Under the pieces are notes generated by a model that was given only the letters and a program-made list of their open reading frames with translations, did no database searches and was not told the origin of the DNA. Made by a program: the position numbers and the translations under genes. From a virus: a DNA stretch of 64,000 nt. The DNA is taken from IMG/VR virus record IMGVR_UViG_3300030320_000049, one strand, 5' to 3'. Below are positions 17,053 to 41,469 of this stretch, in pieces. The stretch's first letter is position 1, and the number at the start of each line of letters is the position of its first letter.

Positions 17053-17115
17053 ACATACGTACCTCCCAATACTTGATACCCATATTGTACCACCTTGGGA
17101 CGTATTCTGGAAGCA

Positions 17116-19172: not shown

Positions 19173-19280
19173 AAAATGACCTCCATTCATTTTTCCTCCA
19201 ATTTTATAAAAACAGTGAGCTTGTCTCTTGGAGGTGAGACTTTCGGGAGCTACCCTAGCCCACTGGTTTTACCGAATTAA

Positions 19281-23500: not shown

Positions 23501-26500
23501 GCTTTATCCCATGCAGCTTGATACTCTGACAGGGCTTTATCTAATGCAGCATCCAGTTCTGGAAGGTGTGCACTCGCACCGCCTCCACTTCCGGAAGAGC
23601 CGGAAGAATTGCTAACTTTTGCATCATTTAATTGATTTAATTCATCAAATGAAAGCACAGAAAGAGTTTTTTGTAATTTCTTCGCATTGTCATTTGTTTT
23701 GTCAAGCCCGGAAGCTGCATCTTCTGTACTATCTGCAATACTTCCCATATCAACTGCGGCACTTCCTGTGGAAGCAACATAATTGGACATTTTGATACCC
23801 AAAAGTCTTCCAACCCACGAAAAAGCTCTCTGAATTGCAATAACAAAGGCGTTTATATATGGAAGAACCTTTGAGATAATCGGAATGAATAATGAACCTA
23901 TTGTCCTTGAAAGTGCGGAAAAGTTAGATTGTAGTAATCTAAGTTGGTTTGCCGGCTGATTTATCGTATTAGCCAGGTCACCCCATGCATACTTTGAACT
24001 ATTCAAGATTGTTATAGTTCTCAGAATAGCCTTGTCCGATTGACTTAAACTTGATACAGTAGCGTCAATTCCAAGATTATAAAGTTCCTGTTGTAAATTT
24101 GCCACACGGATATTAATGCCGTACTTGTCAAGAGCCCGGCTCATTCCGGTTATTCCGGATGCCATATCATTCCATACATCGTTGAACTCAAGGTTCTTTA
24201 CAGAAGCAAGGTCTGCTCCGATTTCTGTTAAAGCTTGTGAAACCTTAGTTGATGCATCTGCTGTTGCCCCCATGGATGATGCCATCTGAGCATAAGTAGC
24301 TTGATAGTTCATCGTTTGGTTTGGATCAAGTCCGAGGCTCGCGCCTTTTGTTCTAGTCAGATCACCTGCATCTGATACTTCAAATCCAGTCATTTTTTTT
24401 GTGAGTTCTTTTGCACGTTTTTCAAAAGATCCCACATATTCCTCTGCGGATTTTACTCCTGCATTCTGCCACTTGCTGATATCTAACCCGTCAGTAACTT
24501 GATCGAACGCAGAGTTAAAATAATTCAAAGTTTCTACGTAATCAGACGCAGATTCTACAGAATTCCAAAGTGCTTTAATCCCCCTTGTTACTGTGAAGAA
24601 TTTCGCATATAATCCAGCAAACTGTGAAGTTAATGAACCAACTTTTTTTGAAGTCGCATTTGCATTATTTCCAAATCCAGTTAAAGCAGAACTTGCAGCT
24701 CCAATTATGGAGGATAACCTTCTTCCAGCATTTCCAAGTCCATTTGTGGAATTTGATAATCTCGAAAAAGAATTCGAAAGAGAATTTGTGGCTTTATTTA
24801 TTTTTCCACTTGCAGTAGCTAACTGTGCCAAAGCTTCTGTCATTCTTATTGTATTTTCACTAATTTTTGGTGCTGATTTCATTACATTGAAGAACGACAA
24901 TACTTCATTTGCTAATGTCCCAAGTTGTCCAGAAGATTGAGCAATTTTACCACCAGCACTTGCCAATTGTGAGATGGATTGTACAAATCTATTTGCAGAA
25001 TCCGAAATTCCATCAACACCAATAAAGCTTTCTGTGATAATTCTTAAACTGCTTCCCAATGCAGGTAATTCAGCGGATACATTTGCAATATATTCACCGG
25101 AATTGGCTAATCTAGCCATTGAATTAACAAAACGATTAACACTTGCAGATACATCCGGTATTGCCGATAATCCAGATAACTGATTGATTATCTCGCCAAG
25201 TTTCATAGAATTAAAATTACTAATATCTACCTGGCTAAATCTGCTAATGGAATTAATGATTGCATTCAAACCGGAAGCTTTATAATTAACAGTTCCCATG
25301 GCTCTTAAAGAATCTGAAAACTGTTTCATTCCATCGGCAATGCTTGTCATTTGTCCTGCATCAATTTCTTTTAACTTTCCGGTAACTGCGTCTTTAATTC
25401 CTGTAGTGTCTACATCCAGAGTGACTTTTACAGTGTTATATTTCAGTTCGGCAACTTTGTTGATTGCCTTCTGAATATCCATTGTTATCTTATCCGTATT
25501 GATTTTTACATCAATAGGAAGTTGTCCATCCGCACTTTTCAAAGCATCGTTAAGGCGAGATTTTACTTGTTCTGCTAATTGTCCTGTTGAATCGACTGCC
25601 ATTCCCCATACTTTATCTGATGCTTTAGAAGCACTTTCACCGTAAAGAGATTCAATGGAAACTGGCTTAATGGATTCTCTAACTTTCTTTATATTTTCCA
25701 GAACGGTAACAAGCTGATCTGCTGCATTAATAGTATCTTTTGGAATTAATGTTGGAAATCTTTCTGAAAGCTCTCCCCATGATTTATCGAGAGTGATTCC
25801 TTTTGTTGCATCGGTAACAACTTTATTAAGGTTATTCTTTAAAAGTTCTGAAAATTCTCCCTTTCCAATATCAGCTTTCAACATATCGGAAACATAGATT
25901 TTCTTGTTTTTGAAATAATTGTAAAAATCAACCCATTCCTGTTCTGCACCATCTAAGTAGCTTCCAAGATTGGCTTTTACTACACTTCCGCTTTTGATAA
26001 TCGTATTTCCAATTTCTTCAACAATGCTTCCAACATTTCCAGAGATTTCTTTCCCGTCAAAAGACTGTGCCATTTCCTTTGCAAGTTCGTTCATTTGAGA
26101 ACGAACTTTTGAAGCAGCACCGCCTTTTAAGTTAAATGCTTCAATTAATTGCTTTGAAATGGAAGAGGTATCAATTTTAATATCACGTACTGTTTTATCA
26201 ATGGCGTATTGTAGTTTTTGCGCTTGATCTCCACCCTTGATATCCAAATCAAGACTAATCTTTTGATTCTGAAGATTGCTAAGATTGATTTTACTAAGTG
26301 TGTTTAATTTTGAAATAGCACTATCAAGCCCAGAAGTACGAACATTGCCTAGAGAATTAAAGGCAGACGTAACCCTTTCAAGTTCCCTTGCATAGCTACG
26401 CAGTCCATTTGTATTTACTCCGCTTAATGCGGAATTAACTTCTGTGAGTTTATTTGAAAGATTAGTCAGCGCACGTACTGCTTTTTCTGTACTGCTGCTA

Positions 26501-26538
26501 ATTTGTATATCAAGGGTATCAATGGTATTGTCAGCCAT
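20524..26538 (-). CDS. tail tape measure protein (2004 aa)
   Basis: Size, position after the G/T chaperones, and long alpha-helical and TM-rich segments. Start MADNTIDTL with RBS aaaaggaggg. Confidence 0.9.
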   Translation of the reverse strand: MADNTIDTLDIQISSSTEKAVRALTNLSNKLTEVNSALSGVNTNGLRSYARELERVTSAFNSLGNVRTSGLDSAISKLNTLSKINLSNLQNQKISLDLDIKGGDQAQKLQYAIDKTVRDIKIDTSSISKQLIEAFNLKGGAASKVRSQMNELAKEMAQSFDGKEISGNVGSIVEEIGNTIIKSGSVVKANLGSYLDGAEQEWVDFYNYFKNKKIYVSDMLKADIGKGEFSELLKNNLNKVVTDATKGITLDKSWGELSERFPTLIPKDTINAADQLVTVLENIKKVRESIKPVSIESLYGESASKASDKVWGMAVDSTGQLAEQVKSRLNDALKSADGQLPIDVKINTDKITMDIQKAINKVAELKYNTVKVTLDVDTTGIKDAVTGKLKEIDAGQMTSIADGMKQFSDSLRAMGTVNYKASGLNAIINSISRFSQVDISNFNSMKLGEIINQLSGLSAIPDVSASVNRFVNSMARLANSGEYIANVSAELPALGSSLRIITESFIGVDGISDSANRFVQSISQLASAGGKIAQSSGQLGTLANEVLSFFNVMKSAPKISENTIRMTEALAQLATASGKINKATNSLSNSFSRLSNSTNGLGNAGRRLSSIIGAASSALTGFGNNANATSKKVGSLTSQFAGLYAKFFTVTRGIKALWNSVESASDYVETLNYFNSAFDQVTDGLDISKWQNAGVKSAEEYVGSFEKRAKELTKKMTGFEVSDAGDLTRTKGASLGLDPNQTMNYQATYAQMASSMGATADASTKVSQALTEIGADLASVKNLEFNDVWNDMASGITGMSRALDKYGINIRVANLQQELYNLGIDATVSSLSQSDKAILRTITILNSSKYAWGDLANTINQPANQLRLLQSNFSALSRTIGSLFIPIISKVLPYINAFVIAIQRAFSWVGRLLGIKMSNYVASTGSAAVDMGSIADSTEDAASGLDKTNDNAKKLQKTLSVLSFDELNQLNDAKVSNSSGSSGSGGGASAHLPELDAALDKALSEYQAAWDKAFEEMNNKANDTADQIVAVFKKIRKAAKPTTASIKKLYDEGLSKLGNFSITALKDLWNNYLKPIGLWMLSDNSGLPRFFNITNDLLNKINWGKLNSSLSGFFTMLQKPTKFVWTGLMDFYEKFLVPVGTWTMNSAIPELVDALTNFGNNIHWDELNSALKNFWDALAPFAQNVGQGIVDFFKDLLDVGENFINTTLPGGLNSIADAIKNISPETAQAIGKGLGQISIAILGFKGLTFIGGIIGKDSPLGKGLSLLAKHPYASMALGIGGIVLALDNFGVIDVDWEWIWSSIDRVKTSIQNFIDKVDWNAVGTALGNLWSAFQPFAEGFADALITGLEGVINIGADLINGIANAINWLAEKLSGVDPEFIKQVGAAFGTLFTIKIAKDIATKIFSFASGIGSLASKLLNFPLDTASFLPTIIGDIGGAAKTASAGGLSSFSSTLGTIFGTAGIVFVATALSVKLARGIASITEAAQGGNGILSQTGGYLHDYTGEMESAHKITQDQAEELWKLIEADESAGKSNSEMYDSFIQKLGEFGVSTEDARKILEKYGAQAGVSTGFLEDMTDKAVALGDGVSESAGKFDTTKISISDLKDELYLLSLSSDQFSGDYLTAKDALDSAISGRTYANTEEALDAVYTSLKNAGVPLDELDEKLRKDFPDAVVTMETSAKNSFDGMNTSVKTAVGGITTAVANASSSVSSKTKTGFGLANTAVSTAMAGMKKSTESTMPSIWSKIKNTNDDVETNSKTNWENSASAVSTALGTMDTDTKDVMGKVMTTIQSYWSSVLINTNQIWEKASGKVDTETGKMKTYTESNLSGISDKIKRLFNVNLTSIGRETAQSFADGMKQVHLPTLTYYISEWRKHDLGGGRTSSTPVYKPNWYAKGGLFNGAQVIGIGEAGTEAVLPLENPRTMKKIADSIVSSSDGSMGLTKEEMAKAVAQGVAMAMSMNSGNNNPQYIMNSIILDGSEIAKAVTKAQNDTDSRFKPSPAY

Positions 26539-26586
26539 TTTATTTATCCCTCCTTTTTTACAAAAAAAATAAAGGGCAGACAAGAC

Positions 26587-27435: not shown

Positions 27436-27909
27436 TTATATTTCTGATGTAGTTACAACCTTTGTATCGAGTCCTTTGTAATCATTTATAATTAATGATA
27501 TCGGGATGGTCGCAGCTTCATTTTGACCGATTTCTGGAAGAGGAATTGCTCGTCCTGTTTCGGCAACAATAAAAAATGCTTTTTCGAGATCTGGGAAAGC
27601 AACTTCGAACCAGGTTGAAAGGCCTTTAGCTTTTGCGTCTTTAGAGTCTTTAAAAAGTTTTTCGATTGCAGTTATAACGTCAGCATTCATGTTAAAAGTA
27701 ACTTCCCATGCGCCTCCAGTATCCTGCCTTCCTGCCGCATATTGTGTGAAATAATCTTCTAATGCGGAAACATCAATCTGTTCGGTGTCAAGACTTATTC
27801 CACCGATTGAATTACACCTTTTTAATTGAGTAAATGCAGTTGGCTTTGTTCCACTCACTGTTTCTACGGCATAATGGAAAGTTACGCCAAGTGTTGTTAA
27901 ATCTGCCAT
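27436..27909 (-). CDS. major tail protein
   Basis: 157 aa, position, and a strong RBS. Confidence 0.75.
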   Translation of the reverse strand: MADLTTLGVTFHYAVETVSGTKPTAFTQLKRCNSIGGISLDTEQIDVSALEDYFTQYAAGRQDTGGAWEVTFNMNADVITAIEKLFKDSKDAKAKGLSTWFEVAFPDLEKAFFIVAETGRAIPLPEIGQNEAATIPISLIINDYKGLDTKVVTTSEI

Positions 27910-27984: not shown

Positions 27985-28278
27985 CTACTCTTCTTTTCCT
28001 GCTTGCTTGATAAGTTGATTTACATAATTACTTAATCCGGCAACGATAATGCCTTGTGTAATTGCGGTAAACAATGCCATTGCAACTTCCTGTGAACCGG
28101 AAACTGTAGATGTTGCAAAAACATAAAGGCCGCAAATTAACACGCCGAGAATCCCTAAGATCATCGGAATAAATTTGTCAGAAATATTTTCTGATTTTTT
28201 AATCATTGCCCCGATGAAATAAAGAACTACAACGACAACAAGTAATTCCGGCTTTACATAGCTTAAAATCTGATCCAT
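27985..28278 (-). CDS. holin (Hol118 / phage_holin_5-like, 3 TM)
   Basis: 97 aa with ELLVVVVVLYFIGAMIKK...FIPMILGILGVLICGLY...ITQGIIVAGLSNYVNQLIKQAGKEE. Resembles the A118 holin layout (from memory). Confidence 0.65.
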   Translation of the reverse strand: MDQILSYVKPELLVVVVVLYFIGAMIKKSENISDKFIPMILGILGVLICGLYVFATSTVSGSQEVAMALFTAITQGIIVAGLSNYVNQLIKQAGKEE

Positions 28279-29380: not shown

Positions 29381-29765
29381 CTTCATTCCCTCTTTTAGAA
29401 ATTCCATATCTGGCAATATTGCCTTTTTGTGTGTCTAAAATCTTCTTTAACACGTAGTCTGGCAATACTGTAGGCTCTCCATTTTCGTCCAAAATAAGGC
29501 TTCCATCCTCTCTTATTTGTGGGATTCTGTCTATCCAAAATATGTCCGCTTCCTGTGGATGGAAATTTCGATTAAAGCTTGTAATGTATCTGTCATAATC
29601 TGGAACTATTCCGGCTGCAATTTCTTCTGGCGTTCCGGCTGTAGATGATACGGAAAAAGAGAACAGAACTGGCTTCTCATAAACTTTAATACGGTCTAAT
29701 CCTTCTGTTTTTTCGGTTATTCGCGACCAATATACTTTTTGCTTTTGACGGACTAATCCTCTCAT
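29373..29765 (-). CDS. head-tail adaptor / head closure candidate (130 aa)
   Basis: Start MRGLV with an ATGA overlap to the upstream stop. Call is based on position. Confidence 0.5.
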   Translation of the reverse strand: MRGLVRQKQKVYWSRITEKTEGLDRIKVYEKPVLFSFSVSSTAGTPEEIAAGIVPDYDRYITSFNRNFHPQEADIFWIDRIPQIREDGSLILDENGEPTVLPDYVLKKILDTQKGNIARYGISKRGNEDG

Positions 29766-30148
29766 GCAATCATCCTTTCTGCCCCGATAGGAGCCACATA
29801 TGTGAACTGGTTTCCTAAAATATCTCTGGCTGTGCCAATCACGAAATGGCTGTAGTCTGCCAGAATATTGCATACAAATTCTTCTGCATCAACCCAATAT
29901 CGTTTCTTAACCATGCGGTGAAGTTCTGGCAGTAAACCATAGCTGAACATTACGCAATGTCCTAATTCATGGATAAATACACGGTTTAGAAGTTCTCCAT
30001 ATAGGTTGTTCGCAATCGAAATTGTCATTGTGGAGTAATCGGATACAGCAAGTGTCCTCTGCCCTGTACGGTCAATCAAAACATTATCATTGGGAGAAAC
30101 AAAGCGCACTCTCCATAAGTCCCCGTTCATATAGAATTGTTTCAGCAT
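29762..30148 (-). CDS. HExxH zinc-metallopeptidase-like protein (128 aa)
   Basis: Motif FIHELGHCVM. Confidence 0.55.
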   Translation of the reverse strand: MLKQFYMNGDLWRVRFVSPNDNVLIDRTGQRTLAVSDYSTMTISIANNLYGELLNRVFIHELGHCVMFSYGLLPELHRMVKKRYWVDAEEFVCNILADYSHFVIGTARDILGNQFTYVAPIGAERMIA

Positions 30149-30221
30149 GGCTTATCACCATCCTTTCTACGAAAAAAGCCCCTGCCGCACTACTGCAACA
30201 AGGGCTTAATCAATATTGTAA

Positions 30222-30848
30222 TCATGTCATCTGCTGAACCAAACGGCTCAGGTCAGTTTTCATCTGCTGTCTGAGCGTTGCATCTGCATCCGACCACATT
30301 TCCGTAAGGTTACGAATAATATCTGATGTGTATTCTTTCATGGAATCATCCATTTTTCTCTTGGATTCAGCATCCTTAGAATCATGATAGTGTCTACGAT
30401 TCTCATCGTATTTATCATAAGATTCTCCGTATCTGGACTTCTTCCAATTCATACCATCATTTTCCATATCACTACGCTCTGGATGATATCCCATGCGGTA
30501 CATATTGCGCTCAAATTCTGGATTGTTTAAATACTCATCCATCCAGTCATCATCCTGCATATACAGATACGGTCTATAGCCTTTTCTGGTTCCCCTACCT
30601 TTTGGAGCGAAACGCCCATTTGAATAGCGGTAACGGTCATATCCCATGCGTCCAAGATACTTTTCTTCCTGTTCGCATTCGTCCATAGCTTCTACAATGC
30701 GATAATCTTTATCAGCGCAAATCGCACATTTTACTGCTTCCATGCAGTCTTTCAGATCGTCCCAATCTTGAGCACTGAGATTATCAAATCCATGTGTTTT
30801 GGCTTTTTCCATAGCCCATTTTCCCATTTCCATTGCTGTCTTATGCAT
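30222..30848 (-). CDS. highly charged Y/R/D-rich hypothetical protein (208 aa)
   Basis: Track ORF, last gene of the 30.2-33.6 kb island. Confidence 0.55.
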   Translation of the reverse strand: MHKTAMEMGKWAMEKAKTHGFDNLSAQDWDDLKDCMEAVKCAICADKDYRIVEAMDECEQEEKYLGRMGYDRYRYSNGRFAPKGRGTRKGYRPYLYMQDDDWMDEYLNNPEFERNMYRMGYHPERSDMENDGMNWKKSRYGESYDKYDENRRHYHDSKDAESKRKMDDSMKEYTSDIIRNLTEMWSDADATLRQQMKTDLSRLVQQMT

Positions 30849-31272
30849 TCACGATACCTCCCCTCTTCACAGCCTGTACAACATTTTCAGCTGTTGGGGC
30901 TGTACCATTGATTGCAGTCAGATTGTTATTCGGGCTACATGCCGGGTTTCCTAACATTTTGAACACTCCACCAGTAGCACTTGTTACAACTCTGGTTGCG
31001 TATTTTGTTCTTGTTCTAACACCACATGCTGTTACCTGTGCGCAGCAACGATTCTCTAGCGGATACAATGTTGTTCCTGTTCCTATCTGAATCATCACTG
31101 GGGCGGTAATTGTGGTTGTATTTGGAATAGATTGTGCTAAAACAATGCAGTATTTTTCTCCATTATTGTAGCTTCCTTCCGGGATAGTAACCACAAGATT
31201 TCCACCTGTGAATGCAATTGCAGTAGAGAGCACAAGGTGATTACAGAGCTTACAAACATTCTTACATGCCAT
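30841..31272 (-). CDS. Cys-containing beta-rich hypothetical protein (143 aa)
   Basis: MACKNVCKLCNH...ENRCCAQVTACG. RBS gagaggtaaaaaat upstream. Confidence 0.55.
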   Translation of the reverse strand: MACKNVCKLCNHLVLSTAIAFTGGNLVVTIPEGSYNNGEKYCIVLAQSIPNTTTITAPVMIQIGTGTTLYPLENRCCAQVTACGVRTRTKYATRVVTSATGGVFKMLGNPACSPNNNLTAINGTAPTAENVVQAVKRGGIVNA

Positions 31273-31349
31273 ATTTTTTACCTCTCAATCAATAAGAGGT
31301 GAGCCGTAACCCACCTCTTAGAATTAGTCAACCTCTAAGGGTGAGTTAC

Positions 31350-32150
31350 TTAGCAACAACCGTTACCATATGTATTACATCCTGCATATGCATATGGAGC
31401 TGGAACCTGGAATGCAGGAATCGGAGCAGGATTGATTGCATTGATTAACTGCTGTGTCTGAGAAGCCATTGCAGTTGTAAGCAATGCAGACTGGCGATCC
31501 TGGGAAGCAGCACGTTTCAGATCAGAATTCTCTGCCTGTAATGTTGCAATCTTATCCTGAGTTAAGAAATCTAACAGCGCTCTCGTGTTGCTGTTCTGAT
31601 TTTCCAGAAGGTCTCTGGTGTTGTTGTTCATTGTATTCTGCAATGCACAAGTGTTGGTAGCCAGGTTATAGTTGATACCCTGGATAGCTTCTCTAGTCTC
31701 GCAGCAACAATTTGCTAACTGAGACTGTAATGCATTGGTATTCTGCATACCGGCTACAGTATCAGCATTGATTGCCTGCTGAACGCCATTAAAACCTTGA
31801 AGCATTCCGACGTTCACGCCGTTGAAACCGCTCTGCATGGTATTGTTAAGCGCATATGTGCTATCACAAATGCCCTGCTGAATACCTCTGATACCATTCT
31901 GAATATCATTCAGAGCAAAGCCCTCGTTGATATCCGCTCTGGTAGCCCATCCTTGGAAACCTGCACCATTTGTACCGTTTCCACCATTGCCGCCCCAGCC
32001 GCCAAAGCCGCCGAAACCGCCCCAGCCAAAGATAAGCAATATTATAATCCACCATGCCCAGCCACCGCCAAAGCCATAGCCTTCATCTGCACGGTTATTA
32101 GAGCCGCTTAATACAGCGACATCGCTTGCTGATAATCCACCATTCATCAT
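31350..32150 (-). CDS. Gly/Trp-rich membrane protein with N/Q-rich region and a C-terminal Cys cluster (266 aa)
   Basis: GYGFGGGWAWWIIILLIFGWGGFGGFGGWGGNGGNG...CCCE...GCNTYGNGCC. RBS aaggaggtaatcgct upstream. Confidence 0.6.
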   Translation of the reverse strand: MMNGGLSASDVAVLSGSNNRADEGYGFGGGWAWWIIILLIFGWGGFGGFGGWGGNGGNGTNGAGFQGWATRADINEGFALNDIQNGIRGIQQGICDSTYALNNTMQSGFNGVNVGMLQGFNGVQQAINADTVAGMQNTNALQSQLANCCCETREAIQGINYNLATNTCALQNTMNNNTRDLLENQNSNTRALLDFLTQDKIATLQAENSDLKRAASQDRQSALLTTAMASQTQQLINAINPAPIPAFQVPAPYAYAGCNTYGNGCC

Positions 32151-32166
32151 AGCGATTACCTCCTTA

Positions 32167-32194
32167 TTGATTTTTGTAATTTATACAAAATCAA
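32167..32194. promoter_or_regulatory. near-perfect 12-bp inverted repeat upstream of 31350..32150
   Basis: ttgatttttgta-atttA-tacaaaatcaa. Confidence 0.45.
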
Positions 32195-32227
32195 AAGACC
32201 GCGGCTCTTTTAATTATTGTAGCGAAT

Positions 32228-32467
32228 TTATTTTATTCCAAACTGGTTCTTAACCTGCGACAGTATATCGTCTGGATTAATATTTCTTTCTTTACAAAGA
32301 TTTCTTGCAAGTTTTTCAATTCCTGCATTATCACCTTTTTCCATCATGTTAATTGCATTGTCAATTACAGGATTATTTCCAGATTGCTGTTTCATCATAT
32401 TGATTATGGCTTGTTGAGGATTCCCTCCACCACGTATCATCTGCATAAGTTGCATTGGATTCATCAT
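32228..32467 (-). CDS. hypothetical M/Q/N-rich protein (79 aa)
   Basis: Track ORF with an ATGA-type overlap to the upstream gene. Confidence 0.5.
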   Translation of the reverse strand: MMNPMQLMQMIRGGGNPQQAIINMMKQQSGNNPVIDNAINMMEKGDNAGIEKLARNLCKERNINPDDILSQVKNQFGIK

Positions 32468-32952
32468 CTCTGTTTACCTCCATTCTGCTTGGGTTCCGAT
32501 GTTCCAGACATTTGTGTCGGGAACATACTCTTTATTTCGGAAATCTCAGAACAAACATCGTTCCGAAGCTGATTAAACATAGCTTCTATGTCAATCGGTT
32601 TTTCTTCTGCCTTTGGTTGCTGTTGTTCTTCCGGATTTATAAGTCGATAAACAAAAATTCTACTTCTTCCATCTGCCTGTAATTGTTTTCTATATATTTC
32701 TGTTCCATCTGTTTTTGGATAATAAACAGGATTACCGGACATATCTACATCTTTTGCCTTTACAGTATCAATGCCATCAACCATCTGTCCTTGCAACATG
32801 GGGATTTGTGGCACTTGTGGCATTGGTTGTTGAATTTGTGCCTGTCCGTATGGCATTGCCTGCTGATAACTATTCTGCAATTGTGCTAATCTATCTTGAT
32901 ACGGCTGTATTTGTTGAAATGGTTGCGCAAAATACGGATTACCATACTGCAT
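32464..32952 (-). CDS. Q/P-rich hypothetical protein (162 aa)
   Basis: MQYGNPYFAQPFQQIQPYQDRLAQLQNSYQQAMPYGQAQIQQPMPQVPQIP... Confidence 0.55.
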   Translation of the reverse strand: MQYGNPYFAQPFQQIQPYQDRLAQLQNSYQQAMPYGQAQIQQPMPQVPQIPMLQGQMVDGIDTVKAKDVDMSGNPVYYPKTDGTEIYRKQLQADGRSRIFVYRLINPEEQQQPKAEEKPIDIEAMFNQLRNDVCSEISEIKSMFPTQMSGTSEPKQNGGKQR

Positions 32953-33045
32953 ATCTCAAACCTCCCTTGTTTTTATAACTATATTTTACAATAATAAAAG
33001 GTTGATTAACACGCCATGATAACGCCATAAATACGCCATTTTCTA

Positions 33046-33282
33046 TTAATACAAAGAAAAGCCCCGACAATACATCGGGGCAACTTTCATAATTTTCTTC
33101 TTTAATTTTCTGTTTATGCGGTCTACGGTTCTTGGGCTGTAGCCCATGATTTCTGAAGCTTCTGCAAGTGTTTTTTCTTCGTAAACACGCAATCGGAATA
33201 ACTCTTTTTCTCTGGAATCAAATCCAGCTTCACGCAAATAGAAGATTCTTTCATCTTCCGAAAAGTCTTTATAATCATCCAT
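33046..33282 (-). CDS. sigma-70 region-4-like HTH protein (78 aa)
   Basis: ...RVYEEKTLAEASEIMGYSPRTVDRINRKLKKKI. Confidence 0.6.
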   Translation of the reverse strand: MDDYKDFSEDERIFYLREAGFDSREKELFRLRVYEEKTLAEASEIMGYSPRTVDRINRKLKKKIMKVAPMYCRGFSLY

Positions 33283-33314
33283 TCCACCGTCCTCCCTGTT
33301 AGTGGAACCAATAT

Positions 33315-33626
33315 TTACACCGGGAAAATGCCTTTTAGGGCAAAGCCTAAAACAATACCAATTATGCCGGTTATGACATAAGCAATTATTTTGTCCTGTA
33401 ACTTTCCTGGCTTTTCCATGAGTGATTTTAAATTGTCGTTCATTTCGTCAACTGTATCCTTAATGTGTCCCAGATCGTTGTTGTATAAAGCAATTTTCTG
33501 TTCTAGCGCATTGATACGATTAAAAAAGCCTTCATCCCTTTTGGAATGCTTTTCTTTCATCTCATGGACGGCACTTTCCAATTCTTTCAAGCGGTGTTCG
33601 TTGATACACTCGTGTTCACATCCCAT
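33315..33626 (-). CDS. XhlA-like coiled-coil protein with a C-terminal TM anchor
   Basis: EHRLKELESAVHEMKEK...coiled coil...IIAYVITGIIGIVLGFALKGIF. Family name from memory. Confidence 0.55.
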   Translation of the reverse strand: MGCEHECINEHRLKELESAVHEMKEKHSKRDEGFFNRINALEQKIALYNNDLGHIKDTVDEMNDNLKSLMEKPGKLQDKIIAYVITGIIGIVLGFALKGIFPV

Positions 33627-33733
33627 CGCTATTCCTTTCCATCACTCCCATTTTTAAGATATTGCTTCTACCCACCTAATTTGAAGCACCCCTGCGATAC
33701 GTGGGAGGATTGACGTATCACGCACACACCATC

Positions 33734-34051
33734 TTAGAATCCGATAAATGGAAATACACCATGATTTACATAGATTTCAGTTTCGGAAGTCCAATTTCTG
33801 TTTACAGAAGATTCGGAATGTGATCCTTGGAATTCAGCTCCCTGTTTCACCAGAAAGAAAAGAGCCAAATCAAATATGCAATCATAGCAGTTTTCCATAT
33901 CGGAATTTATTTTCTCATCACTGTAAGATGAAGGATAATTCCTTTTCTTCTTAAATGAACGAATAGCCCTATTTACTGAAAGAATCACCCTCGCAGTTTC
34001 TACATCATCTTCAAGATAATTTGTCAAATCCTCTATAAGCTGTTCGTCCAT
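33734..34051 (-). CDS. gp6-like head-tail connector
   Basis: Position after the capsid gene; 105 aa; the N-terminal acidic helix pattern is typical. Confidence 0.55.
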   Translation of the reverse strand: MDEQLIEDLTNYLEDDVETARVILSVNRAIRSFKKKRNYPSSYSDEKINSDMENCYDCIFDLALFFLVKQGAEFQGSHSESSVNRNWTSETEIYVNHGVFPFIGF

Positions 34052-34059
34052 TTAATCAC

Positions 34060-34164
34060 CTACCTTTGCTGAGATAAAATCTCTGATATTATTCCAGCCT
34101 TATTAGTTGCTGTCAGGGCATAGCCGTTATCACTTGCAAGTTGTCTTAACTGTGATACAGTCAT
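34060..34164 (-). CDS. small HeH/Rho-N-like (SAP-like) peptide; start uncertain
   Basis: MTVSQLRQLASDNGYALTATNKAGIISEILSQQR. The track ORF extends to 34371 and overlaps the capsid gene. Confidence 0.4.
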   Translation of the reverse strand: MTVSQLRQLASDNGYALTATNKAGIISEILSQQR

Positions 34165-34259
34165 ATTAGACAACTCGCTTTCTGTATACTTATGTGTCGA
34201 TTCGTCATAAACACTCGCTACAGATGGTGACTGGCTGTTTTCATCGAGACTATGCCCGG

Positions 34260-35297
34260 TTATTCCCCCGCTTTGGTACCGATCACGATACCACCGTTTG
34301 CTTTTGGTGCAACAGGGACGAACATACCGGATGCTTTTGTCCATACTGCAACTGGGTCTGGTGTAGCCCACATGGAAAGAGTTACGAAAGAACGGTTCTC
34401 TTCCTGTATAAACTGTCTGTATTCAAGCTCTTCTGGTGTCACACCCCAGAGGCCAACACCGAAAGAACCGTTAGCATCTGCTTCATACAGAGTAAATACA
34501 TCCTCTTTGAGGTATCTGGCTGTTTTCAGGGTTCCATCTGCTTTTCTGAAATTAAAGTTCTCATCACAACGATCAATTGTGATTCCATATTCCTGCATAA
34601 GCAGATTGGCAAGCTCCTGCTTTGTGAGAAGCCTTTTATTTGCAGCACCCAGAACAGCTGTCTGCATTGCAGTGTTGTTCCGCATGTAGTTAATCATTTT
34701 AAGAGAAGTAACAGCTTTGTTTACTACATAGCCATTGCCTTCTGCTACAGCTACCATTTTCTGGATATCGCCCATGATATCTGCATCTGGCTTAGACCAA
34801 TCAGTAAGCGTTACTTTTGCACTTGCTGGAACGCCATAGTCAATTCCCATGTCAACATGGTTCTCTTTGATTGTTACAGCGCCGGTGGAAAGGAACTGTC
34901 CTTTCATAACATTTGCTCTTGTAACAACGCCCTCGAACAGTCTGGCTGCATCATCAAATACAAAGTTTTTCAGTGCTTCATTATCCGGCACACCGTTTTC
35001 AATTGCCTGCCGTAAGTTTTCGGACTGATTGATTTTTCTCTTAATGAAGAGTTTTTCAGTCAGGACTTTTTCAAATCCAGGTCTTGTGCCGATTTCTGCT
35101 TCGCTATCAAGAGCGTGGACGAATGCAACTTCCGGGAGATTCTGTCCAGCCATAAGTCTGTAATACTCTGCTTTCAGATACTGGGTTTTTGTATCTGGGA
35201 AAATGGTATCGAGGATACCTGGTCTTTTAACGCTGAAATTCTGAGAGAAATTAAGTCTTTCTTCTTGGGTAATTGATTCCAAAATATTAAATGGCAT
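34260..35297 (-). CDS. major capsid protein
   Basis: 345 aa, following the scaffold and decoration genes. Resembles the capsid protein E family (from memory). Confidence 0.8.
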   Translation of the reverse strand: MPFNILESITQEERLNFSQNFSVKRPGILDTIFPDTKTQYLKAEYYRLMAGQNLPEVAFVHALDSEAEIGTRPGFEKVLTEKLFIKRKINQSENLRQAIENGVPDNEALKNFVFDDAARLFEGVVTRANVMKGQFLSTGAVTIKENHVDMGIDYGVPASAKVTLTDWSKPDADIMGDIQKMVAVAEGNGYVVNKAVTSLKMINYMRNNTAMQTAVLGAANKRLLTKQELANLLMQEYGITIDRCDENFNFRKADGTLKTARYLKEDVFTLYEADANGSFGVGLWGVTPEELEYRQFIQEENRSFVTLSMWATPDPVAVWTKASGMFVPVAPKANGGIVIGTKAGE

Positions 35298-35310: not shown

Positions 35311-35655
35311 TTAAAATACTGGGTCTTCTGTGACTACAAAAACAATTCCGGATTTTTCAAGCTCTGTTTTTGCAGTAGTGTCAACTGTTACTGGAAGTCT
35401 CTTTTCAAGAACACGTCCTGAGACAATCACAGAAATTGGTCTCTTGGTATCATCTGTCATATCAACATCTTCAAATACAATGCCGATTGCGCCTGTCGCA
35501 TTTGTTGGATATACGGAACCTGCTTTGATAATTTTCTTAGTTCCAACTGTTTCAGCATTTGTCTGGTCTGCTGTGTAGGTTTTGAGTACAAGTCCGACCT
35601 CGGATTCAAGAATATTTGGAGTGGACTCATACTGCTCTGTTTTCATAAAAGCCAT
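35311..35655 (-). CDS. head decoration / DUF2190-like protein
   Basis: 114 aa, between the scaffold and capsid genes. Confidence 0.5.
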   Translation of the reverse strand: MAFMKTEQYESTPNILESEVGLVLKTYTADQTNAETVGTKKIIKAGSVYPTNATGAIGIVFEDVDMTDDTKRPISVIVSGRVLEKRLPVTVDTTAKTELEKSGIVFVVTEDPVF

Positions 35656-35673: not shown

Positions 35674-36321
35674 TTAAATATTTACAGGGGCGTTACCGTC
35701 CACTGATTTAGTTTCCTGGTTCTTTTTTGCTGAGTAAGCTTTTGCAAATTCAGCAGCATCACTTTTTACTGTAGCTTTCCCACCGCTACCACCGCCCGGA
35801 TTCGGAGTGTTTTCCAATGCTTCCTTCTCCCAAGCTGCTTTTGCGTTATCAAGTGCTGTTTTATTTGCTTCGGAAACTCCCTTAACAAAAGTTTCGACTT
35901 CTTTCATTGCATCTTCTGGTTTCTCATACGGTGCAGATGCGTATGCTTTAATAGCACTCGCGTATGTTTCGGTTGAAAGTCCTGCATTTGCGAACATAGA
36001 AGTAATTTCACTGGTAAGGGCTTTTTTGTTGGATTCTGCAAGCGCAGCTTTCAAATCAGCTAACTCCTTATCCACTGCTTCCTTTTCTTTCTTGCGTTCA
36101 GCTTCTAGCCGTTCTGCTTCGGTCATGTTCTGCTTTTTCAACTCTTCCAACTCTTTTTCCAGGGAATCTGCTTTTTCAGCTTTTTCCTTCAGAGAAACAT
36201 TTTTGTCTTTCTCTTTCTTAGTTTCAGCAGAAATAGAATCAAGAAGCTTAGAAACCTGTTCCTCGGAAGGTTCTGCAACTCCCATACCGATAAGTGCCTG
36301 TTTTGCCTGTTCTCTTGTCAT
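35674..36321 (-). CDS. capsid scaffolding protein
   Basis: Start MTREQAKQ with RBS gaaaggagatttca. Long K/E coiled coil. Confidence 0.8.
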   Translation of the reverse strand: MTREQAKQALIGMGVAEPSEEQVSKLLDSISAETKKEKDKNVSLKEKAEKADSLEKELEELKKQNMTEAERLEAERKKEKEAVDKELADLKAALAESNKKALTSEITSMFANAGLSTETYASAIKAYASAPYEKPEDAMKEVETFVKGVSEANKTALDNAKAAWEKEALENTPNPGGGSGGKATVKSDAAEFAKAYSAKKNQETKSVDGNAPVNI

Positions 36322-36486
36322 TGAAATCTCCTTTCTTCCAGTCCAATACGCTTTTTCAACACGGTTCGCTCCGCACATGGTCTGTACCCGATTTACGCTC
36401 ACGGGCTGTTGCAATTTATTTGATTTTGGGTATTAAAAAAGAAGCCTTAGATTTCTCTAAAACTCCTTAAATAATCGAAATTTGGT

Positions 36487-38061
36487 TCATTCTTCGTTAG
36501 ATGGAGAATTTGCCATTGGTTCTGTTTTGGACGGATTTTGAAACTTTCCGTCAAGTAATTGCTGTGCTTTCTGCATTTCCGCTTCCGGGTCTGCCAGTTC
36601 TGGATAAATTGTTCCGAGATAAGGAAGGCTCATTTCATAAACTTTCTGTGGATCACTAAATAGCCCACAAGTAATCAGTGCAATAAGCGGATGAATTTTA
36701 TTTTTGAACAGATAATCAAGTGCCTGTGCTTTTACAAGCATATTGTCTGTCGGGTTTCTGGTTATCTTTACATCAAAATCTCGGGTTGAGATATTAACAT
36801 CATTTGATGTACCACGGATAATATTCAGAATAATTCTAGCAGACTCCTTTTCAGCTTCCTTGGTGAATGCTTCTACCAATTTTGCATCTCTTTCTGCGAA
36901 GTCCCATCCATTACGAAGGTATACAGCATTTCCTGTATCCCCTCCGCTATTGCTTTGTCGGTTTGGCATTGCTTCCACAATCAGCATATTATTGTAGATA
37001 TCATCCTTTGCAACCTGGCTCTCTGATTGATTCAGTTCAGCGGTCATCAGTTCAACATCCGATTGACAGCCATTTCCGGTATCTTTAACAGAGATAGCAC
37101 CAAGTTTTACCATTTCCAAAAACTCGTTTTTGTCTACCTCGCAGTTTTTAAACTTCATAAAGGATTGCACAAACTGTTCCACGCCATTTAATCTGTCAGA
37201 CTGGTATTTGTTAATTGCATCAAATAATGTGATTGCAATTTCAACATCTGAAAGCCTGTCATGATTATTCGGGCATTCAACAATTGGAATACCGCCAAAA
37301 CCATTGATGCCGTAGTTAGTTACTTTCCCATTCTTGATTTCAAAAAACTGGTTCTTTGAATAACATAAATAATATTGCTGTTCATCTTCATCTTTTAAAA
37401 TCTGTACGGAAAGCATTGGTTTCCCATTTCTCTGTGAGTATACAATGTAACAATCACCTGGATACGGAATGAAGATTCTAAACGGTGGTAAATCTCCGTT
37501 TTTTGTCCAATCCTCTTCTTTCAGAATAGCCTTATAGGAAGTTCCTGTTGCGCTCTGGTATATTGCCCTTTGGATGTTTCTTGCATCTGCATTGGCTTCA
37601 TCAAGATAATCATTCAGAAGGTCAACTTGCTCATTTATTTTTTTGTCTGCATTTTTCTTTTTGCATACATATTGGATTGGTTCCCCGCAAATCTGCCCAG
37701 CTTTAAATTTTACAGTTTCAAATGCGTGATTTTCTACCACTCTGTTATTAACTTCTGGACGGACTATTTTATTTCGGTATAATATCGGCTGATCGCCTTT
37801 CATGTACCGATACAGATAATCAATTAATGTTCGATTTCTATTATGTATGCCAATAGTGTCTGATACTACTTTCACTACATTTTGTGGAGTGATTCGGTCA
37901 ACACCTGTGTAGGCTACTTTTCTCCCGAATTCACCTCGGCATAAATCTACAAAATTCATTGTATTTCTCACGAGCCGAACCATCCTTTCTGTAAAATAAA
38001 AAGCACTGGATATTTTAATCCAATGCTCTACTTTATATTTTACACATATTGAAGGTATCAT
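36487..38061 (-). CDS. portal protein (SPP1 gp6-like)
   Basis: Size and position after terL. The true start is probably internal (MNFVDL..., about 37959), because the ATG at 38061 lies inside the repeated 27-bp motif. Confidence 0.8.
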   Translation of the reverse strand: MIPSICVKYKVEHWIKISSAFYFTERMVRLVRNTMNFVDLCRGEFGRKVAYTGVDRITPQNVVKVVSDTIGIHNRNRTLIDYLYRYMKGDQPILYRNKIVRPEVNNRVVENHAFETVKFKAGQICGEPIQYVCKKKNADKKINEQVDLLNDYLDEANADARNIQRAIYQSATGTSYKAILKEEDWTKNGDLPPFRIFIPYPGDCYIVYSQRNGKPMLSVQILKDEDEQQYYLCYSKNQFFEIKNGKVTNYGINGFGGIPIVECPNNHDRLSDVEIAITLFDAINKYQSDRLNGVEQFVQSFMKFKNCEVDKNEFLEMVKLGAISVKDTGNGCQSDVELMTAELNQSESQVAKDDIYNNMLIVEAMPNRQSNSGGDTGNAVYLRNGWDFAERDAKLVEAFTKEAEKESARIILNIIRGTSNDVNISTRDFDVKITRNPTDNMLVKAQALDYLFKNKIHPLIALITCGLFSDPQKVYEMSLPYLGTIYPELADPEAEMQKAQQLLDGKFQNPSKTEPMANSPSNEE

Positions 38062-38503: not shown

Positions 38504-40249
38504 CTATCTCCTTCCCCACATAAAATTTTTGGTTGCTTTTACTTCTGCAAATCTTTTGCTGGCAAGCGTTATTGCAAGCTGTGTAACTCCATCAGCGGCG
38601 TCATCATGTTCATTATCGCCAATATAGACGAAGGTAGTTAATTCATCCATAGCCTTTTGATACTGTTTATCTTGATATTTCGGAGCCAAAAATATAAAAT
38701 TTTGCTTAACATCCCCGGAATATTGATTTATTTTTTCTTTTTTTGCTTGTTTTGAAGGTGCTTTTGTACTTGTCGTGCTGCAAGCGTATTTATGTTCTTT
38801 CAAGCGTTCGTTTACATAATAGGCATACATATCTCCACCATTATTTGCTTCAAAATTGATGGATTGAATATTATTTCCCATGATTCTTCCAACAACTAAT
38901 GGCAATGTTCCTTCTTTTGGTGCTGTGCTAAAAATCCAATCATATATATACACATCTCCATTTTCGTATTCTGCACCCACTGGCATTGATAAGCTATCGC
39001 CACCACCCCACGCAACATCGCAAGCAGAAACATTTTTAACAAATCCACCTTCTGGGAGAACTCCGTTATAATATCTCAATTCGTCAGCTGCAAACACAAT
39101 TCCTTCACGCAAGAAGGGCTTTTGCTGATATTTAGCTTCCCATTCGTTAGCGTCTAACCTAGCTTTCATATCAACATAATATTTTGTTGAAAATCCAACG
39201 CCATACTCATAATCGAAATTGGATTCACCATCATCGTTCAAAGCTGGAATTTTTCTAAACCGATACATTGGATTATCCCGATTTAGCTTCTCAATCTTTC
39301 CAAGAGGATCATATAAATTCCATCTGGTTCCAACCATAAGTTCTCTTGCACCATCAATCTTACGGTCAACCATCTTGTTCAGATATTCTTGATATGTATT
39401 TTCCAATCGGGTAGGGCTTAATGAATGTTGCCTATCTCTTACAAGGTCATCCACGTACAAATACCCATCAGAAGAAATATCAACGGCACCTGTCCAAGTA
39501 CCTTCAATACCACGGCAAGTCATTGTTGCAAATCGGTCTGGTTTGTCCAGGTTTATTTCAAAATCATCAGCACTCTGTTTTTGAAGTTTCGATTGCGGAA
39601 AAATTTCACTGTAGTTGTATTCCTGTGTATTAATGAGGTTAAGAAGTTCTCCGTAAAATCCTTTTGCCAGTTTTCCAGAATGACCACCCATGGCACTATG
39701 GCTATTCGGTCTTTTTCCCATTATCCATGACATAAAGAAAATACACATAGTAGATTTTCCAACACGGCTCGGAAGTGATAAGCCGTAAAACTCTATCTTT
39801 CTTTCTTCCAAATCTTGTAGGTCTTTGGCTACTACATGTAGTGTTTTTTTTCGTGGAATATAAAATTTCTTGCTGTCCGGTCTATTTTTTTCCATATAAA
39901 GCAAGTAACTTTCAAATAAATGTGGTGCTTCCAATAATAAATACTGCCAGTAGATATCGTCAAAATTACCACTTCCAGTTAATGCAGCACACTTCTCTGC
40001 TATGTTATGTGAGTATTGACTTACTTTCATAGCCATTTTCCGTGCTTCTTGGTTCTTGTCGAAAGGAAGGTCAATATTCATATTTAAGAGCAAATCAAGG
40101 CAATCTTTTTGATTCTGATAGATTGTCATGTCGCTACTGATAATCTGATTTAGGACTGTCCGATACCATTCAAGCGAACCTTCTGTAATTTTTCCCATAA
40201 AAATAGAGCCAGACCTCCTTTCTTTTTTAGGATTTAGTCTGGCTCTCAT
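38504..40249 (-). CDS. terL: terminase large subunit
   Basis: Walker A LPSRVGKST, Walker B-like YLYVDDLV, and a nuclease half. The start may instead be MGKITEG at 40198. Confidence 0.9.
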   Translation of the reverse strand: MRARLNPKKERRSGSIFMGKITEGSLEWYRTVLNQIISSDMTIYQNQKDCLDLLLNMNIDLPFDKNQEARKMAMKVSQYSHNIAEKCAALTGSGNFDDIYWQYLLLEAPHLFESYLLYMEKNRPDSKKFYIPRKKTLHVVAKDLQDLEERKIEFYGLSLPSRVGKSTMCIFFMSWIMGKRPNSHSAMGGHSGKLAKGFYGELLNLINTQEYNYSEIFPQSKLQKQSADDFEINLDKPDRFATMTCRGIEGTWTGAVDISSDGYLYVDDLVRDRQHSLSPTRLENTYQEYLNKMVDRKIDGARELMVGTRWNLYDPLGKIEKLNRDNPMYRFRKIPALNDDGESNFDYEYGVGFSTKYYVDMKARLDANEWEAKYQQKPFLREGIVFAADELRYYNGVLPEGGFVKNVSACDVAWGGGDSLSMPVGAEYENGDVYIYDWIFSTAPKEGTLPLVVGRIMGNNIQSINFEANNGGDMYAYYVNERLKEHKYACSTTSTKAPSKQAKKEKINQYSGDVKQNFIFLAPKYQDKQYQKAMDELTTFVYIGDNEHDDAADGVTQLAITLASKRFAEVKATKNFMWGRR

Positions 40250-40266: not shown

Positions 40267-41469
40267 TTATTCACTTGCTTTAAAGTTATATATAGGTTTG
40301 ATAATATCAACTATTTCTACAGTATCTTTGATGTTATCAATAATTTCTTGCGGTGGTTTGTAGGCCATAGGGCTTTCATCAATTGTAGATTTCTGAACGG
40401 ATGTTGTATATATTCCATCCATAGACTCCTTAAATTCTTCTAACGAAATGTTTTCTTTTGCTTTTGACCGGCTCATAATACGTCCTGCGCCATGAGGGGC
40501 TGAACAGTTCCAATCATCGTTTCCTTTCCCGACTGCAATAATGCATCCGTCTCGCATATTCATGGGGATAAGAACTTTTTCACCATACTTAGCTGATATC
40601 GCACCTTTCCGAACAATATTTGTATCGTGGTCAATATAATTATGAATTGTGTCAAACCATGTATCTCTTTGAAGTGTCCAATTCATGCTGTAGAATATAG
40701 CCGACTGTATACATCTTCTGTTTATTCTTGCAAATTCTTGACAGATTTTCATATCATGCAGATATTGTTTTCTGTGTTCTCCTGTCAAGTAGCACAATTC
40801 TTTCGGAATGCCAAGTTTGTCTGGCTTCCATTTTCGTTTTAATTCGTCAATACCATTTTGAATTTCCTTGTGCCTGCCAGAGCACTTGTATTCTTTTATT
40901 AATTTCTGTATTTCAGTTTCAAGTTTATCTGTGCCCTGCATATCTTCTATGGCAATTTTTTGATATATTTCAGCTACTTGCTTCCCAAGGTTGCGACTTC
41001 CAGTATGAATTACAAGGTATTTTGCACCTTTTGAATTAGTGTCAACTTCAATAAAATGATTTCCACCCCCAAGCGTACCAAGGCTCCTGCGAATCCATTC
41101 GATATTTTTAAGCTGATGGAAGTAATGAAGTTCTTCTAATTCTTCAAAATTTATGATTTCGTCACGTACGTTTCTTCCTGCTGGAACATTTCTTCTTATT
41201 GCTTCGTCGAGAATTTTAAAATCTATTGTTCCAACGTCAGCAGGAATTTGCGTTGTAAGCATTCCACATCCAATGTCTACTCCAACAATGTTCGGAATTA
41301 CTTTATCTCCGAGATCAGCAGTAAAACCAATTACACATCCTGCTCCTGCGTGAACATCTGGCATGATTCGTACTTTGCATTCAGAAAATGCAGGCTGCTT
41401 TATCAATGTATAAATCTGATTTAATGCTTCTGGTTCAATGTTTTCTGTAAATATCTTCAAGTCACTCAT
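40267..41469 (-). CDS. rtcB: RtcB RNA 3'-phosphate/5'-OH ligase
   Basis: RIMPDVHAGAGCVIGFT, GGGNHFIEV, HTGSRNLG and SAPHGAGR motifs; 400 aa. Confidence 0.92.
   Translation of the reverse strand: MSDLKIFTENIEPEALNQIYTLIKQPAFSECKVRIMPDVHAGAGCVIGFTADLGDKVIPNIVGVDIGCGMLTTQIPADVGTIDFKILDEAIRRNVPAGRNVRDEIINFEELEELHYFHQLKNIEWIRRSLGTLGGGNHFIEVDTNSKGAKYLVIHTGSRNLGKQVAEIYQKIAIEDMQGTDKLETEIQKLIKEYKCSGRHKEIQNGIDELKRKWKPDKLGIPKELCYLTGEHRKQYLHDMKICQEFARINRRCIQSAIFYSMNWTLQRDTWFDTIHNYIDHDTNIVRKGAISAKYGEKVLIPMNMRDGCIIAVGKGNDDWNCSAPHGAGRIMSRSKAKENISLEEFKESMDGIYTTSVQKSTIDESPMAYKPPQEIIDNIKDTVEIVDIIKPIYNFKASE

Follow-up and report, generated by a model that had tools for sequence, protein, structure and literature searches.

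Three described systems come closest to the gene block analysed here. In the PBSX/SPbeta lytic cassettes of Bacillus subtilis (xepA-xhlA-xhlB-xlyA; YomS), an XhlA-type tail-anchored coiled-coil protein and extra small beta-rich proteins of unassigned mechanism are encoded beside the lysis genes. The i-spanin of the lambda Rz/Rz1 pair has an N-terminal anchor, a helical coiled coil, Cys residues and a Pro-rich C-terminal part, while morons or conversion cassettes occupy the junction between lysis genes and attachment site (att). We examined a 64,000-nucleotide (nt) stretch of viral DNA, IMG/VR record IMGVR_UViG_3300030320_000049 (the window, meaning this whole stretch), and within it seven minus-strand open reading frames (ORFs), g1 to g7, at positions 30222-33626, which an earlier note, made from the sequence alone, had described as an island inserted inside the head-to-tail joining genes. 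Comparison across related loci supports well the view that this region is an accessory module that moves horizontally among tailed gut phages and does not belong to the neck. It can safely be concluded that its core consists of a probably membrane-anchored, Cys-bearing coiled-coil protein (g5) with small partners, a peptidase and a regulator, in a self-contained block.

The PBSX cassette, i-spanins and morons are the nearest analogies, none of them amounting to membership, and several of the defining features tested fail. Like the PBSX/SPbeta cassettes, the module has an XhlA-type tail-anchored coiled-coil protein (g1), is contiguous with holin and endolysin genes in many carriers and encodes small beta-rich proteins. 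In contrast, PDB sequence searches with g5 and g6 gave no homology to XepA or YomS, g1 scores below the Pfam XhlA cut-off, the module is also found away from lysis genes, and PBSX is without the helix-turn-helix (HTH) regulator, Cys-rich coiled-coil protein and zincin of the module. The resemblance of g5 to an i-spanin lies in the outline given above, and in the crAss-like phage cr53_1 a g5 homologue comes after genes that the record labels as holin and as LysB/FtsL-like (Rz/LysB-like); g5 adjoins lysis genes in many loci, but not in all. It differs from spanins in showing no sequence similarity, in being about twice the length of Rz and in having five or more further genes in its module; moreover, no lipobox partner was seen on reading the module proteins, and the hosts are mostly monoderm Firmicutes. 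Moron-like traits are a place between endolysin and integrase or at a prophage edge, an own regulator and terminator, and shifts among genome positions. However, six to eight syntenic genes are conserved across host phyla, and the module is kept in seemingly non-integrating phages and invaded by homing endonuclease genes (HEGs), which is unusual for morons that benefit the host.

A mobile module in diverse phages

The survey covered 72 loci from species-representative genomes together with annotated phage records, and the counts below refer to 81 loci with a g5 homologue; iterative profiles were built from the window proteins and all neighbouring genes were clustered. The recurrent order of slots is a sigma-70 region-4-type (r4) HTH protein, a 127-amino-acid (aa) Cys/His protein in some phages, g3, g4, g5, a small beta protein, an R/Y/D-rich disordered protein and a mini-zincin. 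Its place in the genome changes from lineage to lineage. In the ~80-kb lineage of the window (80 related viral contigs, g5 identity 76-100%), gene order is constant from terminase to tail, and the module and its XhlA-like gene stand between the capsid gene and the presumed head-tail joining genes; the exceptions are HEG-type inserts in eight loci and one locus, L084, without g6 and g7. Dulem virus 35 and bajarodcaudo virus 2 have the module between minor capsid/portal genes and the capsid gene, bajarodcaudo virus 5 has it directly after holin and endolysin, and Clostridium perfringens phages and Bacteroides phage C3_41T2LP have it in early or recombination regions. In a Lachnospira prophage it lies at the very edge, adjoined by host genes in one assembly and by a large serine recombinase in another.

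The commonest position is after an endolysin or an XhlA/holin gene. In eight of ten diverse loci sampled, the first large gene upstream is an endolysin, drawn from several unrelated families; in the remaining two it is a helicase and an ATPase. By a seed-based count, an endolysin-like gene lies upstream of g5 in at least 26 of the 81 loci, at 2.0-3.8 kb with one outlier at 5.4 kb. XhlA-like or holin genes immediately precede g2 in several lineages, and an integrase lies downstream of the module in several loci. A location within the head/neck gene block is seen in the window lineage and two others, and only there does the conserved structural-module place expected of a neck or head fibre hold. 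With at least four genomic contexts, position is variable, as for a moron; yet the module is kept in nearly all 80 relatives of the window lineage.

These comparisons bear out the earlier reading of an inserted block that has an HTH protein of its own and RNA structure inside it, and of genes foreign to the ordinary neck or structural set, as the same block occurs elsewhere after endolysins, beside integrases, in early regions and between portal and capsid genes. The counter-case, in which related phages would carry these proteins here as conserved virion components, was not found, since location varies outside the lineage.

Carrier hosts are mostly Lachnospiraceae, Oscillospiraceae and other monoderms. 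The g5, disordered-protein and zincin slots are also found in crAss-like and Bacteroides phages, and the Bacteroides phage module follows the slot order as far as an R/D/Y-rich peptide and a protein with HExxH. A g5 protein identical to that of the window was found in 423 data blocks, where the longest contigs are 50-200 kb and typically 78-83 kb; the window lineage thus shows no sign of integration, because exact g5 never occurs on contigs >200 kb.

All seven ORFs are present on the minus strand with the coordinates and sequence features first reported for them, and they are real genes under capsid-like purifying selection. Across ~14 divergent relatives, their ratios of nonsynonymous to synonymous substitution rates (dN/dS) are 0.06-0.17, compared with 0.08 for the major capsid protein; values for portal and the gene dn183 were discarded because mosaic alleles distort them. 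Low dN/dS together with thousands of homologue clusters for g5, g6 and g7 indicates genes rather than chance ORFs. Most of the seven proteins belong, as had been suspected, to no described family: searches of Pfam, NCBIfam and PHROGs returned only the XhlA-like and r4 HTH assignments and unnamed PHROGs. We found no description of the module in the literature on crAss-like lysis, XhlA, BclA and prophages, C. perfringens virion proteomics, B. uniformis phages or DUF7841.

The core protein g5

The g5 gene (31350-32150, minus strand) encodes 266 aa and agrees in each particular with its first description. A GWGG-rich N-terminus contains a short hydrophobic stretch of ~13 residues flanked by W and G; the body is a long N/Q-rich helical domain in which C95, CCC148-150 and C168 are invariant; and the C-terminal part has a P-rich segment followed by a Cys-Gly tail, GCNTYGNGCC. 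From these features g5 is probably a membrane-anchored, Cys-bearing coiled-coil protein. It matches phrog_16490 (unknown function) with an E-value (E) of 4e-71 and its homologues fall into at least 7972 clusters when grouped at 90% identity and into 1687 at 50% identity (E <= 1e-3); a PDB sequence search gave no match. An AF2 model built on a close-homologue alignment is helical and of low confidence, with a predicted local distance difference test (pLDDT) score of 47. Among the 150 best homologues, lengths are mostly ~200-330 residues (one of 399), shorter entries resemble fragments and nothing points to domain fusions.

The family ranges from siphovirus-like phages of Lachnospiraceae, Oscillospiraceae and Clostridium to crAss-like and Bacteroides phages, whose homologues keep the Gly/Trp hydrophobic head, the CCC, the motifs 'ASQ..Q' and 'RP.P.PAY' and a C-terminal GCGC tail. 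Some g5 homologues are annotated in their records as 'viral fiber' or 'spike protein'. The annotated g5-like coding sequence of crAss-like phage cr53_1 (L004:4665-5579) has an in-frame stop under translation table 11, consistent with stop-codon recoding in that phage.

The gene is also a target of insertion. It is split by a LAGLIDADG endonuclease ORF in locus L156 (L156:9263-9883) and by a NUMOD1 ORF in L103 (L103:1701-2567). In eight window-lineage loci (for example, L071:10887-11726), a 279-aa Cys-rich ORF without a Pfam match lies between g5 and g6, inserted between the g5 stop codon and the RNA element described below. Another candidate, a 198-aa minus-strand ORF after g5 ('cluster 10'), was rejected, as it looks like an antisense artefact.

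Genes upstream of g5

The first gene, g1 (33315-33626, minus strand), encodes 103 aa with a coiled coil and a C-terminal transmembrane (TM) anchor (hydrophobic residues 80-96, Kyte-Doolittle 17-residue maximum 2.49), and so fits the XhlA architecture of an N-terminal coiled coil and a single C-terminal TM segment in ~70-110 aa. The XhlA-like label proposed earlier holds as far as the TM segment and a full-length match to phrog_937 'hemolysin' (E 1e-14) go, but the Pfam XhlA profile (PF10779) gives 16 bits, under its gathering cut-off of 34.7. Homologues of g1 lie between endolysin/holin and g2 in 14 of 81 loci; in the window, a holin-like gene is 5 kb off and the endolysin 27 kb off. We class g1 as a gene of lysis-cassette type, which in the window lineage goes along with the module.

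The module is opened in 54 of 81 loci by g2 (33046-33282, minus strand; 78 aa), whose assignment as a sigma-70 region-4-like HTH is confirmed by PF04545 (Sigma70_r4; 27.6 bits, above the gathering cut-off of 24.1) and by TIGR02937 (E 5e-9, region 4 only). All matches are to region 4, with none to region 2 (core binding, -10 recognition); at 78 aa and with region 4 alone, g2 is a stand-alone r4-type HTH protein and not a sigma factor. It has weak similarity to region 4 of SigF and SigG, and is presumed to regulate the module. In 25 loci, a 127-aa family with invariant Cys, His and Asp stands between g2 and g3; it is absent from the window, and a profile search with it gave no match.

Two genes of biased composition, both as first described, lead into g5. 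In the product of g3 (32464-32952, minus strand; 162 aa; Q 17%, P 9%), a Y/Q/P-rich N-terminus is followed by a small conserved domain at the centre and a coiled coil at the C-terminal end; the protein matches phrog_21718 (unknown function; E 1e-18) and nothing in Pfam or PDB, profile searches included. The gene overlaps g4 by 4 nt and is present in 69 of 81 loci, immediately upstream of g4 and g5. The next gene, g4 (32228-32467, minus strand), encodes a helical, N/M/Q-rich protein of 79 aa. Its slot, a 70-80-aa Q/N/M-rich protein directly 5' of g5, is filled in 57 of 81 loci by two families (37 and 20 loci). Within the window lineage, g4 occurs as two alleles (100% or ~30% identity to the window) in otherwise near-identical modules. 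Searches of PHROGs, Pfam and NCBIfam with g4, g6 and g7 gave no match.

Exchangeable partners downstream of g5

The 143-aa product of g6 (30841-31272, minus strand) is beta-rich and, as first noted, starts MACKNVCKLCNH and has a CC motif. Its invariant or near-invariant (>=90%) cysteines are C3, C7, C10, C42, C76, C77 and C112, with an N-terminal CxxxCxxC, and its homologues form 3271 clusters at 90% identity. PDB sequence searches gave no match, and an AF2 model from a close-homologue alignment is of low confidence (pLDDT 46); Foldseek with this model found nothing in PDB and only unnamed sequence relatives in BFVD. The slot, a 130-170-aa protein directly 3' of g5, is filled in 58 of 81 loci, by the Cys-rich type of the window in 22 and by an unrelated family in 36. 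The latter resembles the C-terminal domain of BclA (PF18573), a C1q/TNF-like trimer of the Bacillus exosporium nap: 8 of 29 members have E <= 0.01 (best 5e-7) in full-length, whole-domain matches below the Pfam cut-off. By contrast, window g6 shows no profile similarity to this family, with an hhalign probability of 0.4%, and a collagen-like region and exosporium-targeting N-terminus are lacking.

The last of the seven, g7 (30222-30848, minus strand; 208 aa), overlaps g6 by 8 nt. It has helical ends and an R/Y/G/D-rich disordered middle, and its composition (38% D/E/K/R, Y-rich) is that of the highly charged Y/R/D-rich protein first described. Homologues form 1690 clusters at 90% identity. The slot of this R/Y/G/D-rich protein is filled in 48 of 81 loci by two families, the window type in 37 and one with a DUF7841-like C-terminus in 11; the second includes a crAss-like cr53_1 gene annotated 'sigma factor/ubiquitin-like'.

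A predicted terminal zinc peptidase

The gene directly after g7, dn128 (29762-30148, minus strand; 128 aa), had been counted among the head-tail joining genes, but instead travels with the module in unrelated phages. Homologues of 105-130 aa follow the g7 slot in 17 of 81 loci, and the module of the Bacteroides phage is likewise closed by an HExxH protein. By this distribution, the island is one gene longer than first stated, with dn128 as the last slot of the module and not a neck gene.

The protein is a predicted small zinc peptidase of the HExxH...E type: HExxH occurs in 17 of 17 family members, and H60, E61, H64 and E90 are invariant in 16 sequences. Its closest likeness is to the minigluzincins (projannalysin/MJ1213, selecase) and the SprT, Wss1 and IrrE zincins, with which it shares a length of ~110-130 residues and an invariant HExxH and downstream Glu. 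The dn128 profile matches minigluzincin MJ1213 (E 0.004), Wss1 (0.075) and IrrE (~1) in PDB, all of them marginal, and its Pfam matches to SprT-like and M78 are below cut-offs.

RNA elements and expression control

The 77-nt spacer between g5 and g6 (31273-31349, minus strand) folds at -33.2 kcal/mol (z-score -6.5). In it, GAGGUGGG can pair with an upstream CUCACCC, which begins right after the g5 stop codon, or alternatively with a downstream CUCACCUC that is followed by a U-run, as in a terminator; a third hairpin covers the g6 ribosome-binding site. The 38 distinct sequences of the element barely vary, with a mean column identity of 94% over 15 aligned variants chosen from them, compared with a synonymous divergence (dS) of ~0.65 in the flanking genes, and all three stem substitutions seen retain pairing, as read by eye from the alignment. 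A covariance model of this RNA reaches close relatives only, plus a weak analogue at the same place in the distant locus L006, so covariation is not statistically demonstrable. Rfam gave no match over 29500-34500. From its foldings, the element looks like a terminator/antiterminator switch, possibly coupled to translation of g5.

The strongest intrinsic terminator (30176-30207, minus strand; 14-bp stem and T-run, z-score -4.2), missing from the earlier list of hairpins, lies after g7 and closes g1-g7; it provides the own terminator expected of a moron. A sequence pattern for it finds a match in 45 of the 67 related loci, and the folded variants show compensatory changes in the stem. Of the hairpins that had been listed, 31290-31320 is part of the structured g5-g6 element, whereas the spacer upstream of g1 (33672-33705; z-score +0.36) and the g4-g5 spacer (32167-32215; z-score -1.1) fold no better than shuffled sequence. 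Promoter-like sites number 11, which does not exceed the 13.1 +/- 4.3 expected from shuffled sequence.

Possible function

The role that we rank first, as a tentative possibility, is that the module acts on the host envelope in connection with lysis or egress; it takes this rank because of the recurrent contiguity with XhlA, holin and endolysin genes. Under this reading, g5 would insert into the cytoplasmic membrane by its short Trp/Gly-flanked hydrophobic segment and oligomerise by its long helical domain, with the conserved cysteines binding metal or forming cross-links, and would recruit the small beta protein (g6 here) and disordered g7. The zincin might process a module component or a host target, and the HTH protein and the switch-like RNA after g5 could set amounts, with g5 in excess over g6 and g7. 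The complex would then act on the host envelope with its XhlA, holin and endolysin neighbours, at or just before lysis, and aid or time envelope breakdown and release. With low confidence, a role in the lytic cycle may be proposed from the lack of integration signs, the crAss-like homologues, the HEG invasion of g5 and the capsid-like selection.

Several points weigh against a lysis or egress role, chief among them the loci in which the module sits in early regions or beside integrases. Characterised homologues are lacking for all of the core proteins, and the mechanistic steps above are therefore all ones that we infer; the g5 and g6 models are of low confidence and fold searches gave nothing usable. 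The module lies away from lysis genes in a good share of loci, being in early or replication regions in L003, L005, L087, L099, L145 and L165 and at a prophage edge beside a serine recombinase, and these loci are more in keeping with an autonomous accessory unit than with a component integral to lysis. The hydrophobic stretch of g5 is short, a dedicated HTH regulator and terminator are typical moron features, and monoderm hosts are not known to require a third lysis component.

The same moron-like traits favour a somewhat doubtful alternative, a superinfection-exclusion or lysogenic-conversion module in which g5 and its partners would decorate the membrane of the infected or lysogenic cell and so prevent DNA entry or adsorption, whether by other phages or, on cell debris, by progeny of the phage itself. 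The own HTH protein and conserved terminator, the place beside integrases or at a prophage edge, the varied expression context (early and late regions) and the predicted membrane anchor of g5 would all suit it, and an arms race would be tracked by the exchangeable beta and disordered slots, which unrelated families fill. Exclusion proteins occur in temperate as well as virulent phages, examples being Imm and Sp of T4, Llp of T5, Sie2009 and Ltp. However, the known systems consist of one or two genes rather than six to eight, PADLOC returned coiled-coil noise for g1 and nothing for the other nine proteins, and the module is kept in nearly all members of a lineage without signs of integration; nor do promoters exceed chance, and the partner proteins have no signal peptide on reading of their sequences, for which no dedicated predictor was run. 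That last observation, with conserved cysteines suited to cytoplasmic metal binding, fits instead a membrane-tethered intracellular complex for host takeover or counter-defence, which would interfere with division or envelope synthesis or use protease-based counter-defence. The SprT/Wss1/IrrE-like zincin, the 'PolyVal metallopeptidase' annotation in the Bacteroides phage record and the early-region location in several phages point the same way, but this idea leaves the association with lysis genes unexplained and no homology to known anti-defence proteins or division inhibitors was found, and we consider it unlikely.

Position within the head/neck gene block in three lineages raises the question of a virion-associated accessory, either a neck or head fibre with g5 as stalk and g6 or the BclA_C-like protein as knob, or packaged proteins for ejection or membrane penetration. 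C1q/TNF-like knobs are common as fibre tips, the hot spot next to the module in the window lineage has pre-neck-appendage/tailspike-like genes, some g5 homologues have the fibre and spike annotations mentioned above, and the attenuator after g5 suggests that g5 is abundant. This account is improbable given the usual location after the endolysin or in early regions, the HTH regulator and peptidase in the module, the hydrophobic anchor on g5 and the failure of fibre, decoration and ejection families in Pfam, PHROGs and PDB to match. Least probable is the function first suggested from composition, namely that these are proteins of the spore coat, the exosporium or a matrix, or that they form a secreted peptide system with a dedicated regulator. 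In its favour are the richness in Cys, Tyr, Gly and Gln, the BclA_C-like protein in the g6 slot of many relatives and the SigF- and SigG-like region 4 of the r4 HTH, and many Clostridia hosts are spore formers. Yet no window protein matches a coat or exosporium family in Pfam or NCBIfam, and window g6 is unrelated to the BclA_C-like family. Because the g5, disordered-protein and zincin slots also turn up in crAss-like and Bacteroides phages, which infect non-sporulating hosts, a spore-specific core function is excluded and the spore idea is largely refuted. As to secreted peptides, neither reading nor family searches showed a signal or leader peptide, a transporter, or an enzyme for export or modification, with no dedicated predictor run.

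A broader and rather doubtful form of the envelope proposal is that g5 and its partners constitute an unrecognised phage envelope system, widespread in the gut and built around a protein that inserts into membranes and resembles a fusion protein or spanin in outline. If so, g5 would combine a hydrophobic head rich in Gly and Trp with a long coiled coil and a Cys loop, would work in monoderm and diderm hosts with exchangeable partners, and would represent a third egress component or a new kind of entry block, its stoichiometry set by a translation-coupled RNA attenuator. The g5 family and its four or five fixed partners lack a name, fold and function despite the 1687 clusters, and a conserved, mobile, self-regulated multi-gene module, often beside lysis genes, offers a handle on the dark matter of the gut virome. 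Cultured carriers exist, including Butyrivibrio phage Ceridwen, Bacteroides phage C3_41T2LP and several phages of C. perfringens, among them CPD1, HMD-PC1 and CPQ4. For annotation, the region is not a neck structure, and the HExxH gene is to be counted with the module.

Genome context and neighbouring insertions

The window carries a tailed-phage genome, read on the minus strand, with the following genes: an RtcB RNA ligase (40267-41469) just upstream of the large terminase (38504-40249), then portal (36487-38061), scaffold (35674-36414), a 114-aa head protein (35311-35655), the major capsid protein (34260-35297) and, beyond the module, a holin (27985-28278; phrog_1129, Phage_holin_5_2), the major tail protein (27436-27909), a 2019-aa ORF presumed from size and position to be the tape measure (20524-26583) and the endolysin (5528-6334). 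The labels 'gp6-like connector' and 'head-tail joining' given to the genes flanking the module have position as their only support, as searches of PHROGs, Pfam and PDB with these genes gave no match; a PDB sequence search with dn183 likewise gave none.

Lysis genes are scattered in this phage, because the holin, between the presumed head-tail joining genes and the major tail gene, is separated by 22 kb from the endolysin. In the related locus L162, an r1t-type holin (L162:16429-16686) is found at the position matching the window holin. Adjoining the endolysin, a 247-aa tyrosine-recombinase ORF (6416-7159) covers integrase profiles in part and is possibly truncated; instead of an active integrase, this may be a remnant, or else an invertase.

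Two hot spots of insertion flank dn128. At 29762-29873, where the 128-aa and a 166-aa ORF overlap, the window and nine relatives have no insert, and ~60 related loci carry 0.3-6.8 kb with ORFs of 450-970 aa (L057:8651-14986, L063:12823-19524). The cargo includes pre-neck-appendage/tailspike-like proteins, a BNR-like protein, a tyrosine recombinase and a reverse transcriptase, probably of a diversity-generating retroelement. At 30149-30221, inserts in ~20 related loci widen the g7-dn128 spacer to 324-1496 nt; in L078, the single example looked at, the insert is located after the g7 terminator.

In the expected tail region (16126-19190), 3' of the presumed tape-measure gene, lie one gene for a replication initiator or DnaD-like protein (18222-19190) and one for a lipoprotein that resembles superinfection-exclusion proteins (16126-17052), which suggests further mosaic insertions. 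Overlapping the end of the capsid gene, a 103-aa ORF with a GTG start (34060-34371) has a C-terminus that matches the last part of a PHROG with the label 'endonuclease VII'; on identical contigs, gene calling retains just a 34-aa product. Lastly, the upstream regions of L162 and L163 that match 40267-41469 of the window have Tad8-like, DUF7736 and Band_7 genes, and the region around RtcB may serve counter-defence or RNA repair.

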